A DNA stretch of 64,000 nucleotides, from sequence record PX393109.1. One strand, written 5' to 3'. Position 1 is the first letter of the stretch; every line of letters begins with the position of its first letter. The notes under the pieces are model-generated. The model was given only the letters and a program-made list of their open reading frames with translations. It was not told the origin of the DNA and did not search any database. The translations under genes and the position numbers were made by a program. Source of the DNA: a phage. This document shows, in pieces, positions 4,440-55,167 of the stretch.

Positions 4440-4998
4440 TTTCAGTATGCAGAGTCTTGAAGACTTTGTACCAGAGCATGGTAAGAGCGTAGTAGTCTTC
4501 TACCACGAGCGATTCTATTCCCGAGTAGAAATGCTACAGATGCAAGTAGAGTTCCACTACCAGATGATAGATGGCGATGGCTGCCCAGTTCCTCAGTGGG
4601 CATGCTATGATAATCGTGACGACATACCGTTCGATAAGCCATTCATCTGGAAAGATAAGCAGGTTAAGTTCCTTACTCTGGACGACTGTATGGAAATACA
4701 TAATCGTCATCCCAAGCACCACTATCGTTACTGGTGGGTTAAGGACTGGTTCCTAACTGGCGGAGGAAATAGCCAGTTAAATAGGGAACAGCTGGCGGAG
4801 ATGTCGTTAGGGATTATGAGTGCCGAACAGTTTAGTGCTGAGCTGGATAAGGGATGTGCTGATCTGGAAGCCAAGCGTATCTTACGTGAATTAACTCGTG
4901 AATCCCGTACTGGATATTGTGAGAAGCATGGCACTCGTCAGCTGGGTAAGGACCTATGTGATGTGTGCCGTATTGAACGTGCATTTATGGAGGGATGA
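4429..4998 (+). CDS. hypothetical protein
   Basis: ORF track 4420..4998 (GTG); first ATG at 4429. Confidence 0.45.
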   Translation: MPINFSMQSLEDFVPEHGKSVVVFYHERFYSRVEMLQMQVEFHYQMIDGDGCPVPQWACYDNRDDIPFDKPFIWKDKQVKFLTLDDCMEIHNRHPKHHYRYWWVKDWFLTGGGNSQLNREQLAEMSLGIMSAEQFSAELDKGCADLEAKRILRELTRESRTGYCEKHGTRQLGKDLCDVCRIERAFMEG

Positions 4999-5654
4999 TG
5001 CGGATCTGGACCGACAAGAACTCTATTCTGGAGTTTATCGGAGAGTACCGATTCCTATCTAACTTTTATCCTGTTCCTATTGAGGATAAGAATCCTTACG
5101 GGAACGAGACTCTTCCCTCCCTTACTTACCCTAGTGTGGAGCATGCCTATCAAGCATCTAAGTCTCCATCACTAGCCCATCGTCTTATCATAGCTAGACT
5201 TCATACTCCTGGTGAGGCCAAGAGATATGGACGTAAGCTGCCCATTACTGAATCGTGGAAGGAACAGAGAGTAGATGTGATGGAACACCTACTCCGGATT
5301 AAATTCGCGAAAGGTGGGGAGCTAGCTCAAAAATTGACCGATACTTGGCCTAAGGAGCTGGTCGAAGGAAATACCCACGGAGATTCCTTCTGGGGTATGA
5401 CTCGTGAGGAGTACAAGTCCGTCCTCACTGGTATTAATATGCTCGGACGATTACTGATGAAACTTCGGGAGGAGTTAGTTATGGAACAAATGACCAAGGA
5501 GACAGGATCGTTTGCGGAGTGGCATAAACTGCTGCACCAATACGCTCAGTCTCGTGGCGGTAGCGCTGCTGATGCGGAAGCCTGGCGGGATGATTACGAT
5601 GAAGGTAAGACCCCTAAGCAGGCCTACGACGATGAGTGGGGCGAAGAAGACTAA
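4995..5654 (+). CDS. NADAR / YbiA-like N-glycosidase domain protein (candidate ADP-ribosylation reversal enzyme)
   Basis: FLSNFYP...PSVEHAYQASK...ESWKEQRVDVMEHLLRIKF...LVEGNTHGDSFWG aligns by eye with E. coli YbiA motifs (FSNFAAWP...SEHYFQAQK...LVEHTENDAYWGDG); acidic C-terminal tail. Confidence 0.75.
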   Translation: MMRIWTDKNSILEFIGEYRFLSNFYPVPIEDKNPYGNETLPSLTYPSVEHAYQASKSPSLAHRLIIARLHTPGEAKRYGRKLPITESWKEQRVDVMEHLLRIKFAKGGELAQKLTDTWPKELVEGNTHGDSFWGMTREEYKSVLTGINMLGRLLMKLREELVMEQMTKETGSFAEWHKLLHQYAQSRGGSAADAEAWRDDYDEGKTPKQAYDDEWGEED

Positions 5655-5662
5655 CCTATCTT

Positions 5663-5690
5663 AGCGCTCTTTAGGGAGCGCTATTTTTAT
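5663..5690 (+). terminator. rho-independent terminator after NADAR gene
   Basis: AGCGCTC/GAGCGCT 7-bp stem, 6-nt loop, followed by ATTTTTATTT. Confidence 0.55.
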
Positions 5691-6358: not shown

Positions 6359-7072
6359 ATGTCTACTAAGATGATGCCACACCATCTGGCTCCGAATAAA
6401 CTGTTTAACCGATTCCTGTCATATCACGACTCCTACCACTGCGCAATTGACATCGAGACCGAGTATCTCGATTTTAAAGAGCCTGGGGTAGTTCTATCTG
6501 TAGGTATGGTGACGGTTGGTCCTGATCACTACTCCCACGTCTACTTCACTATTGATCGAGAAGAGTCGCTGGCTCTGGGTATGAAGTCTGACCCTAACGT
6601 AGTTGAATGGCTCAACACTCTCCCGAAACCCGTCCGTGATGCTGCATATGCTAATCCAGTATCTGTTGACGAAGCTCTGGATATCATCGAAGAGTACGTA
6701 GCTAAGGTACTACAGGATCCTGGTTGCCAGATGTTGAACTTCATCGGTAACGCACCAGAGTTCGACCAGGGATTCCTGGATTGGTACTTTAAGGCTAAAG
6801 GACGTAAGACCCCGTTCCTACACTGGATGAATCGAGATTACCGCACTCTGGCTAGTCTGCAGCTGATCTCATTCGATGATCGTCGCATGATTAAAGAAGA
6901 ACTGAGTAGCCAGCACGAGTCTATGTCTGATCACCATGCATTGTTCGATGCGATGCTGGAAGCTAAGACTTGGGTTCGCACCATCAATCGTGTAAAAGAG
7001 TTACAGGATCTGGAGCACGAGGTGAATACCATGATTGCTATGCAGGGTAACTCTGTGGAAGATGGAGAGTAA
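6359..7072 (+). CDS. DEDDh-type 3'-5' exonuclease (DnaQ/RNase T-like)
   Basis: Exo I-like CAIDIETEY, later NAPEFDQGFL, C-terminal HHALFDAMLEA (H-x4-D motif III). Confidence 0.6.
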   Translation: MSTKMMPHHLAPNKLFNRFLSYHDSYHCAIDIETEYLDFKEPGVVLSVGMVTVGPDHYSHVYFTIDREESLALGMKSDPNVVEWLNTLPKPVRDAAYANPVSVDEALDIIEEYVAKVLQDPGCQMLNFIGNAPEFDQGFLDWYFKAKGRKTPFLHWMNRDYRTLASLQLISFDDRRMIKEELSSQHESMSDHHALFDAMLEAKTWVRTINRVKELQDLEHEVNTMIAMQGNSVEDGE

Positions 7073-7423: not shown

Positions 7424-7648
7424 ATGCAATCACGTCGTATTGGTTTGTTAAGCGGTATCGGTATGGTTCTGGCTGGATTAGGTCATATGTGGCCCACCCC
7501 AGCAGTGTCTGCTAAAGGCTATGACGGATTCCGTCGCGCCTGTACCAAGGTAAGCTGCCCTAAGACTACTACAGCATCTGCATTAAAGCGTGCGGCTAAG
7601 AAGGCTAAAGGCCGTAAGGTTAATAAGCAACGTCACAAGGGTAAATAA
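7424..7648 (+). CDS. small basic protein with N-terminal hydrophobic segment
   Basis: 74-aa ORF, GLLSGIGMVLAGLG then lysine-rich tail. Confidence 0.45.
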   Translation: MQSRRIGLLSGIGMVLAGLGHMWPTPAVSAKGYDGFRRACTKVSCPKTTTASALKRAAKKAKGRKVNKQRHKGK

Positions 7649-8028
7649 TGTCTCATATGACCCGAGAAGAAATCGTATTGATGGTGGCTAAGGTGTGTCA
7701 CGAAGCTAATCGTGCATACTGCCATTCTATCGGAGACTTCACCCAATTAAGCTGGGAAGCAACATCCGATGAAATAAAACAGTCGGCTATTGATGGAGCG
7801 TATAACTGCTTACACAATAACCGTATCAGCCCAGAAGAGTCCCATGAATTCTGGGTTAAAACTAAAAAGGAGCAGGGCTGGAAGTATGGAGAAATCAAAG
7901 ATCTCGCAGCTAAGACGCACCCGTGTATGGTTCCATATTCACGGTTGCCGGAAGAGCATCGAGTCAAAGATCACCTCTTCACCAGCATCTGCGCAGCATT
8001 CATTAAACAGTACAAAAGGGCATCATGA
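7648..8028 (+). CDS. RyR-domain protein
   Basis: [43 protein letters not shown] matches the RyR domain core (W..GW.YG......HP.LVPY..L). Confidence 0.55.
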
Positions 8029-52540: not shown

Positions 52541-52584
52541 AACCGCTCTTTTGTAAGGTCCAAAGGCTGTTAAACCGTTGGAGG
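52541..52584 (+). promoter_or_regulatory. conserved intergenic motif copy 5
   Basis: AACCGCTCTTTTGTAAGGTCCAAAGGCTGTTAAACCGTTGGAGG; ends in the RBS of the 52593 gene. Confidence 0.5.
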
Positions 52585-52592
52585 AATCAAAT

Positions 52593-52934
52593 ATGAAAAC
52601 TGCTGATATCATTACGTTCCTGGGTAACCTATCTTCCCTATATAATAAGGTAGGAGACAATCGTCGTGCTGGGTCATTCGCGAGAGCATCCCAGTCTATT
52701 CAACTTCACGTTAAGATCCCCGAAGTTAAGGATTTGTCGCAACTCGGCAAGTTACCTAACGTCGGCGGGTCGACCATCAACGAATTAATCGAGATGGATA
52801 CTAAAGGGACTACCGATCGTATGGAGTCCCTGAAGAAACAGCTCGAAGAAGATGGTCCGCAGGATACTTCTGCTAAACTGGCTAACGCATTGGCTTTAGT
52901 TAAGGCTAAGCAGGCCAAGATAGAGAAGAAGTAA
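52593..52934 (+). CDS. hypothetical protein
   Basis: ORF track 52578..52934; ATG at 52593 with GGAGG RBS 8 nt upstream; motif copy just upstream. Confidence 0.5.
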   Translation: MKTADIITFLGNLSSLYNKVGDNRRAGSFARASQSIQLHVKIPEVKDLSQLGKLPNVGGSTINELIEMDTKGTTDRMESLKKQLEEDGPQDTSAKLANALALVKAKQAKIEKK

Positions 52935-53428
52935 TGTTTATGTTCGTCACTGGTCATAGGCCAGATAAACTGGGTGGCTGGGATATCTTTAGCCATGATC
53001 AGCTTACCCAGTTTGCCGAACATCATATCCAGAGGTTGACCGAAGAAAATAAGGTCGACTGCTGGTTCGTGGGTATGGCTTTAGGATGGGACATGGCATG
53101 TGCTCAAGCATGTGCTAACCTCGGAATACCATATTTCGCAGCAGTCCCTATGATTGACCAGCCCAAGATGTGGCGATCTGCAGATGTAGAAAAATGGACT
53201 GAGCTCTGCAGGAGAAGTCGTCGCACAATTATAGTTTCCGAGCCTGGGTATGATTCTTTCAAGATGATGGTGCGTAACCGTTACATGGTTAACCGTAGTC
53301 AGAAGGGATTAGCCTTATGGGATGGCAGCAAGGGTGGTACAGGTAACTGTGTAACCCATGCTAAATCTCTGGGTAAGGAAGTAATTAATGTATGGGAAGA
53401 TTATGTCAAAATCACAGGATCTCCTTAA
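52934..53428 (+). CDS. SLOG-superfamily protein, YpsA/DUF1273-like
   Basis: VTGHRPDKLGGWDIF / FVGMALGWDMACAQAC / AVPMIDQPKMW / LALWDGSKGGTGN parallel the B. subtilis YpsA blocks (recalled from memory). Confidence 0.5.
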   Translation: MFMFVTGHRPDKLGGWDIFSHDQLTQFAEHHIQRLTEENKVDCWFVGMALGWDMACAQACANLGIPYFAAVPMIDQPKMWRSADVEKWTELCRRSRRTIIVSEPGYDSFKMMVRNRYMVNRSQKGLALWDGSKGGTGNCVTHAKSLGKEVINVWEDYVKITGSP

Positions 53429-54005: not shown

Positions 54006-54548
54006 GTGAATATTTTCCGTACTCACGAAGATGCGTTAGAATGTGCTATGGACCATTGTATGCCAATGCACCAGAATAAAATGATTATCGAATGTGCTCA
54101 GCTGTTGTCCACAGCTCATCATGTTCTGGATGGCGATCAAGCTATCGAGGGTATTTACAAACAGACTCACGTAAATCACCCATCAGCACGCTGGGTCCGT
54201 GAATCTTCCGGTAACTACAACTTCGTTAAAGAGCTGGCTAACTATCTGTGTATCCTGTTCTATGAACGTACCGGTCGTATGCATGCCACAGATATTATTC
54301 TGTCGCGACTCAGCAAACTGCCTAAGAACTTGAAGGTCGGTCCGGAGACTGACATGACACCTTATGCGTGTGTGGCAGGTGCTCCTGGCGAAACAGTTTA
54401 CGAGAAGTATCGTAACTACCTGAACGATAAATACTATATCTGGGAGAAAGAGGGTCGTACCATTACTTTCTACCGCACTCCCGAATGGTATAAACCCGCT
54501 CTTTTTACAGTTCCAAAGGCTGTTAAAGTGTCTGAGGCGAGCGTCTAA
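54006..54548 (+). CDS. hypothetical protein
   Basis: 180-aa ORF; its last ~15 codons read through a copy of the conserved intergenic motif. Confidence 0.5.
   Translation: MNIFRTHEDALECAMDHCMPMHQNKMIIECAQLLSTAHHVLDGDQAIEGIYKQTHVNHPSARWVRESSGNYNFVKELANYLCILFYERTGRMHATDIILSRLSKLPKNLKVGPETDMTPYACVAGAPGETVYEKYRNYLNDKYYIWEKEGRTITFYRTPEWYKPALFTVPKAVKVSEASV
54495..54537 (+). promoter_or_regulatory. conserved intergenic motif copy 7 (inside 3' end of a CDS)
   Basis: CCCGCTCTTTTTACAGTTCCAAAGGCTGTTAAAGTGTCTGAGG. Confidence 0.45.
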
Positions 54549-54552
54549 TTAC

Positions 54553-54595
54553 GCCGCTCTTTTGTACGGTCGAAAGGCTGTTAAAGTGTTCGAAG
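54553..54595 (+). promoter_or_regulatory. conserved intergenic motif copy 8
   Basis: GCCGCTCTTTTGTACGGTCGAAAGGCTGTTAAAGTGTTCGAAG. Confidence 0.5.
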
Positions 54596-54682
54596 TGCCA
54601 ATTCCGGCTTATCTAACTAAGAAGGTATATCGTATGTAACGGTTAATCACTTAGAGAAGAAGATAAAACTTAGGAATCGTTT

Positions 54683-54726
54683 CGCTCCCTATTTCCCATC
54701 ATCACAGTGCTCGGTGATAGGGAGCG
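54683..54726 (+). promoter_or_regulatory. long imperfect hairpin
   Basis: CGCTCCCTAT...ATAGGGAGCG 10-bp outer stem with inner ATCAC/GTGAT stem. Confidence 0.4.
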
Positions 54727-54735
54727 GGCAACTTA

Positions 54736-54773
54736 ACACTCTTTTGATGACTCGAAAGGCTGTTAAATTGTCA
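54736..54773 (+). promoter_or_regulatory. conserved intergenic motif copy 9
   Basis: ACACTCTTTTGATGACTCGAAAGGCTGTTAAATTGTCA; a terminator lies ~25 nt downstream. Confidence 0.45.
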
Positions 54774-54797
54774 TAAGTTGTTCATGGGATCCGTGGG

Positions 54798-54827
54798 ACC
54801 GACTGCTAGCGTACCAGTCGGTTTTTC
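54798..54827 (+). terminator. rho-independent terminator
   Basis: ACCGACTG/CAGTCGGT stem, 9-nt loop, followed by TTTTT. Confidence 0.65.
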
Positions 54828-55167
54828 GGTGGTCTGCAGTGCTTGAGTCTGTAAGGTATGAGTGGGACTCAAATTAAAAATAAACTAAACCGTATCAGCT
54901 GTCGGGACTCCTTACCCAGAGACAGTCGTATCCGAGGCCATACGAGAATGGCAAAGTAGGAAGCTATATGGGACTATCAATCCCGGATTTGGCGTATGGC
55001 TCTTCCTACCTCCTCAGGACAGGTTGACTGAGGGCTACAAGCCTATGTGATACCAGCCAATGGCGTTACGCGGTTGGCGAGATCGGCTTAATCGCCGATT
55101 GGTAATCTGGCGCGACGAACGGCGTCCCTGTAACAGTAAGCAGGATAATATTTCTCAGGAGAGTACG

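Follow-up and report, generated by a model that had tools for sequence, protein, structure and literature searches.

A covarying stem-loop heads a probable, unannotated structured RNA and tRNA unit downstream of a promoter-like motif in a rare Escherichia coli myovirus

The stretch of DNA analyzed here, which we refer to as the window, comprises 64,000 nucleotides (nt) of the phage sequence record PX393109.1. The phage is a rare E. coli myovirus and is ~87% identical to the Escherichia phages vB_EcoM_IME392 (IME392) and EP_H11. Genes on the + strand occupy 1-10.7 kb and 52.6-64 kb and include functions in nucleotide metabolism, helicases, RusA and a DenV-like glycosylase; the genes between these two blocks are on the - strand and encode the terminase and structural proteins. 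In the second + strand block, a 2.1-kb stretch (54549-56633) has almost no coding capacity. This island contains tRNA-Arg and tRNA-Met, and copies of a promoter-like motif are present in it or at its border at 54515, 54573, 54755 and 55987. The annotation of the region is empty in IME392 and EP_H11, and the corresponding island of the Acinetobacter phage Ab1-TPeters is annotated with tiny hypothetical open reading frames (ORFs). Here, we focus on hairpin P1, the stem-loop that follows the ninth copy of the motif (copy 9) and that runs into five consecutive Ts (Table 1). The original prediction placed this stem-loop and its T5 run within ~25 nt of copy 9; direct reading of the sequence confirms the arrangement, with 24 nt between the end of copy 9 and the start of the stem and ~22 nt between the predicted transcription start and the stem. 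P1 is an element of an ordinary kind, i.e. a promoter-proximal stem-loop or weak terminator, and it heads a structured RNA/tRNA unit that is unannotated and unclassified.

P1 was compared among seven sequences (the window, L045, IME392, L044, EP_H11, L048 and L051), which represent three independent lineages and, correspondingly, three alleles. The stem has 8 bp, five of which are G-C pairs, with a folding free energy (dG) of -10.5 to -12.5; P1 of the window folds at -12.5 kcal/mol, and 4 of 200 shuffled sequences fold as well. The loop has 9 nt (CTAGCGTAC, 54806-54814) and is extended to 11 nt in allele C. Allele A (window, L045) has the arms (A/G)CCGACTG and CAGTCGGT followed by TTTTTC; allele B (IME392, L044) has GTCGACTG and GAGTCGGC followed by TTCAT, so that the T-run is replaced by CTTCAT; and allele C (EP_H11, L048, L051) has GCTGGCT and AGTCAGC followed by TTTTTC. 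In other words, the U5 run is present in five of the seven sequences (alleles A and C) and lost in the two sequences with allele B. For seven stem pairs in seven sequences, all 49 cells are standard pairs. Two pairs are changed on both sides (A-U/G-C and C-G/U-A) and two on one side via G.U: 54798:54822 is found as A-U, G-C or G.U, 54800:54820 as C-G or U-A, 54799:54821 as C-G or U.G, and 54802:54818 as A-U or G.U. The loop core GCGUAC is invariant in all alleles while the stem varies. Because P1 is conserved with compensatory changes in the relatives, it is not a chance structure. Moreover, on the opposite strand the G.U variants would be mismatched as A.C and, therefore, the element is expected to act as + strand RNA and not as a DNA cruciform or as - strand RNA. 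By the evidence of these alleles, P1 is a genuine + strand RNA element.

The combination of a hairpin and a T5 run is rare in this DNA. In the + strand gene blocks (22 kb), a custom scan (dG <= -10) gave two such sites on the + strand, at 5684 and 54822, and there was one site in 41 kb of antisense sequence. Given this rarity, the probability of finding such a site by chance within 60 nt of any of the 13 motif copies is ~2%. Each of the three T-run positions substituted in allele B pairs with the 5' flank of P1, which is invariant, and the corresponding extended helix has 89.8% of its cells paired. It is possible that allele B has a lengthened helix in place of the U-run, an extension that is imperfect and unproven.

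P1 is followed by a longer stretch with the hallmarks of a structured non-coding RNA, which we refer to as RNA A. In the alignment of the seven sequences, 97.7% of the cells of its 63 pairs are paired, as compared to 29-44% if the partners are slid by one to three columns. Nine pairs are changed on both sides, and 0/500 shuffles reach the observed values. For instance, helix H5 has an almost wholly different sequence in alleles B and C, with ~11 double changes and the same shape, and a 6-bp outer helix, a CU bulge, an inner helix and the apical GGGACUAUCAAUCCC are kept across the alleles. Many G.U pairs in RNA A are invariant and compatible with the + strand only, and 54830-55144 contains no conserved ORF and varies by single-base indels among the relatives. 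Compensatory changes, strand-specific G.U pairs and lack of coding potential, i.e. the features generally expected of a structured non-coding RNA, are thus all found in RNA A, in three lineages only. In a cmscan search of 54500-56700 against Rfam 15 at gathering and permissive (E <= 5) thresholds, only the two tRNAs pass and nothing else relevant was returned. Separately, we observed that in L045, a contig 99% identical to the window, H8 and H9 (~window 55046-55100) are replaced by ~120 nt of unrelated sequence (L045 1206-1328) while the flanking helices stay identical, i.e. a module is swapped inside RNA A. Scans with a position weight matrix (PWM) of the motif and with a promoter consensus detected neither a motif copy nor a sigma-70-like promoter between 54830 and the tRNAs. 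As there is no other promoter candidate, copy 9 is the nearest one for RNA A and the tRNAs, and its transcript must pass P1.

The case for copy 9 as a promoter is built on the motif family as a whole. In a search that tolerated up to three mismatches, the 17-base core AAAGGCTGTTAAAKTGT was found 13 times in the window, always on the + strand and with at most two mismatches (0.23 expected; 0/100 shuffles). The PWM gives exactly 13 sites at 38-60 bits, with the next best at -12 bits, and copy 9 is in the middle of this range (50.8 bits). All 13 copies are confined to the two + strand gene blocks, where they are co-oriented with, and positioned just upstream of, transcription units, and most of them are followed 15-35 nt downstream by a start codon with a Shine-Dalgarno sequence. 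One copy (52543-52578) is located between divergently oriented genes, 15 nt ahead of the first + strand gene; because this is where the + strand block must start, a promoter is expected at this copy. Four independent Logan (k=31) contigs (L052, L053, L054 and L057) each break inside the same copy, and these breaks arise because it matches another copy over at least 31 nt; they are an assembly effect of the repeat and not a genome end. Aligned on the hexamer, the copies read TGT-TAA(A/G)nT, with TG and TA in 13/13 and the final T in 11/13 copies (TGT TAAATT in copy 9), and the motif therefore has the form of an extended -10 element, i.e. TAnnnT with TG one base upstream. Upstream of it, AAAGGC forms an invariant block (-21 to -16), and a box is conserved at -40 to -31 (CCGCTCTTTT, given also as GCTCTTTT at ~-38 to -31). 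The -35 hexamer TTGACA is not found 16-18 bp upstream, where positions -36 to -29 read TCTTTTGT with at most two of six matches in any register, and a consensus promoter scan that covered 10 kb lists none of the motif copies falling there.

A related motif is present in phage Ab1-TPeters, the terminase (TerL) of which is 59% identical to that of the window. This genome has eight copies of aaCTCaaaattgagttCAAAAGCTGTTTAAAGTgt, which are co-oriented with the genes and have the same distance from CTC to TAAAGT (CTC-N22-TAAAGT), and four of the eight surround its tRNA-Arg(TCT)/tRNA-Met(CAT) island. Co-orientation, the spacing to start codons, the divergent copy, the sequence TGnTAAAnT and the identical spacing in Ab1-TPeters together support, albeit indirectly, the idea in the original prediction that the motif is a promoter. 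In our reading, the host polymerase would use the motif as a promoter, aided by a phage factor. Because copy 9 is like the other twelve copies and is followed by an RNA gene unit, it adds in turn to the evidence for the whole motif family as promoters. Copy 9 is kept in all seven related sequences, with a single A>G change in EP_H11. The alternative offered in the original prediction, namely that the motif is not a promoter at this position, finds no support, as copy 9 equals the other copies and is kept in all seven relatives.

We made additional observations on copy 9 and its neighbors. Together with its upstream flank, copy 9 forms a 17-bp imperfect palindrome at 54730-54769 (AAYTTAACA / TGTTAAATT plus TCTTTTGA / TCGAAAGG). 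On its reverse strand, this palindrome matches the motif matrix better than any other minus-strand site (10.7 bits), and most motif copies share only its inner repeat TCTTTTG-N6-CGAAAGG. Copies 7 and 8 form a tandem duplication of 58 bp, with copy 7 overlapping the DenV-like gene in its last 11 codons, and EP_H11 carries a single copy at this position. The idea that all motif transcripts carry a protective 5' hairpin was rejected, as the best hairpin between +1 and +50 averages -6.1 kcal/mol for the 13 copies versus -6.5 for 150 control positions.

The layout of the motif resembles that of the middle promoters of phage T4 in that TAAAnT with an upstream TG is combined with a conserved box in place of the -35 hexamer and serves DNA-metabolism genes and a tRNA region. 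The T4 promoters, which work by sigma appropriation, combine a sigma-70 -10 element with a MotA box that has the consensus (a/t)(a/t)(a/t)TGCTTtA and is centered at -30. The box in the window differs from it, and the motif has the additional invariant AAAGGC; thus, the layout is analogous and the motif is not a member of the T4 class. Homologs of MotA or AsiA gave no Pfam or PHROG match in 30 scans of + strand ORFs in the window, in which some ORFs were run against both libraries, with ~50 kb of the genome outside the window. A phage-encoded RNA polymerase as reader of the motif was dropped as a candidate since no gene for it is annotated in the complete Ab1-TPeters genome or was found in the window in Pfam and PHROG scans. 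The motif family would represent a phage-specific class of promoters without a -35 hexamer and with a 12-base invariant block, which constrains the factor that reads it.

The loop of P1, with 9-11 nt, is outside the usual range of 3-8 nt for intrinsic terminators, and a standard terminator scan missed P1 because its loop limit is 8 nt. The discriminant d (d'Aubenton-Carafa type) with its approximate threshold of d > 0 ranges from -9.9 to -16.6 in alleles A and C and falls to -43.6 in allele B, as compared to the reference terminators of the window (at 5684, 10998 and 45284), the scores of which are, in ascending order, +27.2, +34.2 and +41.7. The tail score is 3.86 with the T5 run and 2.1 in allele B. 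Similar to canonical intrinsic terminators, P1 has a GC-rich stem that runs straight into a U-run in two of the three alleles; by contrast, its loop is long, its score is sub-threshold, its loop core is invariant, and it is located at the start and not at the end of a conserved RNA unit. With its 9-nt loop and sub-threshold discriminant, P1 falls short of a "clean" terminator and is a weak terminator at best. The data argue against a strong, essential terminator and cannot separate a "leaky" from a "regulated" one. The canonical terminators with d of +27 to +42 elsewhere in the window suggest that the phage relies on a terminator-sensitive, i.e. host-type, polymerase.

Based on these data, the reading that we favor, and to which we give about an even chance, is that P1 is the first stem of a ~370-nt structured non-coding RNA/tRNA unit transcribed from copy 9, with partial termination at the U-run in two lineages. 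In this model, copy 9 would be an active phage promoter of the middle or early type, which the host RNA polymerase would read, probably with a phage-encoded specificity factor. Transcription would begin near 54776, and P1 (54798-54822) would fold first in the nascent RNA as the 5' domain of the ~370-nt structured RNA, which would extend to about 55144. The structured RNA would be co-transcribed with the small ORFs, tRNA-Arg and tRNA-Met, and tRNA processing would release the tRNAs. In the lineages of the window and EP_H11, the U5 run 3' of P1 would make it a weak, leaky intrinsic terminator giving rise to a minority by-product of ~50 nt, while in the IME392 lineage the same positions would extend the helix instead.

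Several points weigh against this model. The motif lacks a -35 hexamer, and its 12 invariant bases exceed the needs of sigma-70 alone; depending on the polymerase or factor that reads the motif, terminator behavior could differ from that assumed. Only three independent alleles are available, so that the covariation represents few events, and the shuffle controls correct incompletely for relatedness. Over the 385-nt region as a whole, the minimum free energy z-scores do not stand out and are uninformative (-1.3 on the + strand, -1.9 on the - strand), and the long-range pairs proposed by RNAalifold (e.g. GGATCCGTGG with 55037-55049) were not adopted as they involve invariant columns only. The discriminant was calibrated with older energy parameters and was computed here with ViennaRNA energies, which makes its threshold approximate. 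Also, an 8-bp GC-rich stem running straight into U5 is kept in two of the three lineages, where real termination may occur. Finally, promoter activity and read-through of P1 are inferred, as are the start site, the co-transcription and a biological role of the RNA.

Two other explanations, both of which we consider unlikely, give P1 a larger role in termination. In the first, P1 is a regulated promoter-proximal terminator at which early transcripts from copies 7-9 would stop at the U-run, until a later phage factor or the RNA itself confers terminator resistance and switches on the non-coding RNA and the tRNAs. Such arrangements are known from lambda pR'-tR' (6S RNA, Q antitermination), lambda oop and HK022 put, where an intrinsic terminator lies tens to ~200 nt past a phage promoter and a short RNA is made unless there is read-through. 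The promoter here is within 50 nt of a terminator-like hairpin, the genes downstream have no other promoter, three promoter copies in tandem lead into the P1 site, and the layout is similar at L047 17581 in Ab1-TPeters, where a 6-bp hairpin and then a U-rich stretch come after a motif copy. However, no antiterminator gene, alternative fold or pause element conserved among the alleles was found and, different from the lambda and HK022 systems, no Q-like protein, Q-binding element, pause signal or put-like double stem-loop was identified. Moreover, the terminator is weak from the outset, and allele B, in which the U-run is missing, keeps everything else, so that regulation at P1 cannot be essential. 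The attenuator of the original prediction, if taken as a leaky promoter-proximal terminator as in the model above, may apply to two lineages.

In the second of these explanations, P1 is an efficient terminator for a dedicated ~50-nt small RNA (sRNA) of the Hfq type, in which the conserved single-stranded leader would pair as a seed with host or phage mRNAs, and RNA A would result from rare read-through or from an unrecognized promoter. A conserved seed combined with a covarying terminator stem is the usual pattern of sRNAs, and the order of promoter, conserved 22-nt leader, covarying stem and U5 tail, the last in five of seven sequences, matches it. By contrast, allele B has no U-tail and nevertheless keeps the hairpin and the leader, the score as a terminator is below threshold, a plain terminator would not typically have an invariant loop core, a search within the window gave no target site for the leader that is consistent between alleles, and the conserved RNA and the tRNAs downstream have no other promoter candidate. 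The short sRNA that had been proposed is, therefore, improbable as the main product. One of the three alleles retains the hairpin without the T-run, the score is low, and a covarying RNA and tRNAs with no other motif copy lie downstream.

We regard it as quite improbable that P1/U5 serves to end upstream transcripts, i.e. those of the DenV-like operon and RNAs from copies 7 and 8, with copy 9 being inactive or acting at the RNA level, e.g. as part of the palindrome 54730-54769 in a ~230-nt RNA from copy 8 to the U-run. Consistent with this idea, P1 is the first of the terminator-like signals to follow the + strand operon starting at 52562, copy 9 and its flank are unusually stable as RNA (-15.8 kcal/mol for the palindrome versus -5 to -9 for most motif copies), and the stretch between copies 8 and 9 is conserved and includes an invariant hairpin. 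However, the PWM score of copy 9 is typical, none of the invariant positions is missing from it and it is kept in 7/7 sequences; the terminator is a weak one that allele B lacks, and the RNA and tRNAs downstream would be left without a promoter of the motif class. A DNA-level element, such as an origin primed by the promoter transcript (as at the T4 middle-promoter origins) or a protein-binding palindrome, or a mere coincidence is very improbable, because, despite an A+T-rich stretch at 54873-54890 and the palindromic nature of copy 9, the one-sided changes in the stem are all via G.U and fit + strand RNA only, the regional profile has no GC-skew switch, and chance is unlikely given the conservation and the ~2% prior.

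Returning to P1 as the first stem of the structured RNA/tRNA unit, related arrangements are known. In the tRNA region of phage T4, the stable RNAs C and D, the role of which is unknown, are encoded and transcribed with the tRNA genes (PMC3014915). Similarly, the structured RNA here is between a promoter copy and tRNA-Arg/tRNA-Met; however, it has no sequence relationship to RNAs C and D and no Rfam match, it is longer (~370 nt) with about ten helices, and its co-transcription with the tRNAs and its processing are predicted. ROOL and GOLLD are large structured RNAs of phages and prophages that have an unknown function and are often near tRNA islands, with one GOLLD downstream of a Met-tRNA (PMC12286853). 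The likeness is in genomic context only, with RNA A upstream of the tRNAs and a second non-coding stretch, referred to as stretch B, downstream of tRNA-Met; the RNAs of the window are not members of these families, as there was no cmscan match at E <= 5 to Rfam 15, in which both are represented.

Stretch B (56005-56580; ~575 nt) comes after motif copy 10 (55987), a short distance past tRNA-Met. Its identity among the lineages is 94-99% and thereby above that of the flanking genes; it varies by single-base indels, has a GC content of 50-56% and has no Rfam match. It extends to the ribosome-binding site of ORF 56633 and contains one helix with G-C/G.U/A-U variation (TTGGCG/CGCCAA versus TTGACG/CGTCAA). 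Stretch B is a candidate for a large structured RNA or a giant 5' leader.

Tentatively, and with less confidence than in the model itself, we speculate that P1 may be the entry domain of a new family of large structured phage RNAs in the tRNA island, comprising RNA A (54776-55144) and stretch B (56005-56580), each after its own motif copy, and that the hairpin/U-run gates the output of RNA and tRNAs. This family would parallel ROOL/GOLLD by context and be unrelated to them in sequence and structure. The tRNA island of this rare group of E. coli myoviruses holds at least one covarying multi-helix RNA without an Rfam family, and probably two, adding to the cases in which large structured RNAs are, for reasons still unexplained, associated with phage tRNA clusters; we consider these unclassified RNAs a more novel part of the island than P1. 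If P1/U-run indeed terminates in a leaky or regulated manner, it would be a natural dial on the dosage of phage tRNAs and non-coding RNA, and allele B would be a built-in "terminator-off" control.

Table 1. Coordinates of the features discussed, given as positions in the window; transcription start and extended helix are predictions
Feature	Position	Strand	Details
Tandem motif copies 7 and 8	54495-54589	+	Cores at 54515 and 54573; upstream of copy 9
Motif copy 9	54736-54773	+	Promoter-like element, acactcttttgatgactcgAAAGGCTGTTAAATTGTca
Parts of copy 9	54739-54769	+	CTC 54739-54741; invariant AAAGGCTGTTAA 54755-54766; TG 54761-54762; -10-like TAAATT 54764-54769
Predicted transcription start	54775-54777	+	6-8 nt past the -10-like hexamer; from sigma-70 promoter geometry applied to the alignment of copies
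Leader	54776-54797	+	22 nt; GTT(T)CATGG(G)ATCCGTGG largely kept among alleles (alignment)
Hairpin P1	54798-54822	+	8-bp stem ACCGACTG (54798-54805) / CAGTCGGT (54815-54822)
T5 run (U-tract)	54822-54826	+	C54827 next
Possible extended helix	54791-54829	+	CCG 54791-54793 with CGG 54827-54829; GUGGG with the U-run via G.U
Structured non-coding RNA A, body	54830-55144	+	About ten local helices
H2	54843-50 / 54865-72	+	RNA A
H3	54892-903 / 54921-31	+	RNA A
H4	54937-41 / 54948-52	+	RNA A
H5	54956-70 / 54993-55009	+	RNA A
H6	55011-17 / 55028-34	+	RNA A
H8	55057-65 / 55069-77	+	RNA A
H9	55082-87 / 55094-99	+	RNA A
H10	55114-17 / 55123-26	+	RNA A
H11	55127-31 / 55140-44	+	RNA A
tRNA-Arg (TCT)	55541-55617	+	No motif copy between this tRNA and copy 9
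tRNA-Met (CAT)	55763-55838	+	Rfam/tRNA match
Strong intrinsic terminator	5684	+	After ORF 4995-5654
Strong intrinsic terminator	10998	-	Convergent end of the - strand block
Strong intrinsic terminator	45284	-	After capsid-region gene

A comparison of the island of the window with Ab1-TPeters using nhmmer gave matches to the tRNAs only, and the same was found for E. coli genomes. In IMG/VR, searches with two words from the non-coding RNA, with the motif and with the terminase protein gave no relatives and only single chance matches (e.g. L003); in two JGI metagenome scans, the non-coding RNA word had 0 matches and the motif 64 single chance matches. The motif is not present in the 42 kb around the terminase of Ralstonia phage RP13, and exact look-ups for further alleles gave nothing new. 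In the literature searched, we found no published work on transcription in IME392, EP_H11 or RP13, and no transcriptome data for this group of phages. The Ab1-TPeters island (L047 16845-20100) is annotated as a string of hypothetical ORFs of 30-60 amino acids on both strands; these are probably unannotated RNA genes.

Several smaller features surround the structured RNA/tRNA unit. Downstream of copy 8, a start-stop mini-ORF (ATG TAA, 54634-54639; feature 54621-54639) is located 8 nt after a GAAGG ribosome-binding site in all lineages. Directly upstream of copy 9, a long hairpin at 54683-54726 (CGCTCCCTAT...ATAGGGAGCG, with an inner ATCAC/GTGAT stem) has a dG of -23.6, a z-score of -3.7 and no T-run; it is invariant and, therefore, covariation cannot be judged. 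Between two small ORFs, a 13-bp perfect hairpin at 55276-55343 (GATGACCTCTTAG / CTAAGAGGTCATC) encloses ~42 nt; it is kept in IME392, has an altered 3' arm in EP_H11, and gives weak matches at chance level to microRNA-precursor models. An ORF of 67 amino acids (55360-55563) contains a CxxC...CxxC pattern as in DnaJ-like zinc fingers and overlaps the first 23 nt of tRNA-Arg. This ORF is also called in L045 and is absent in IME392 and EP_H11, which have other sequence at this position, including in EP_H11 an extra tRNA-Gly directly after the structured RNA. Finally, the products of the + strand blocks include NADAR domain, Rv2179c-like 3'-5' exoribonuclease, RyR-domain and YpsA/SLOG-family proteins (4995-5654, 6359-7072, 7648-8028 and 52934-53428), domains that may relate to nucleotide signaling or anti-defense.

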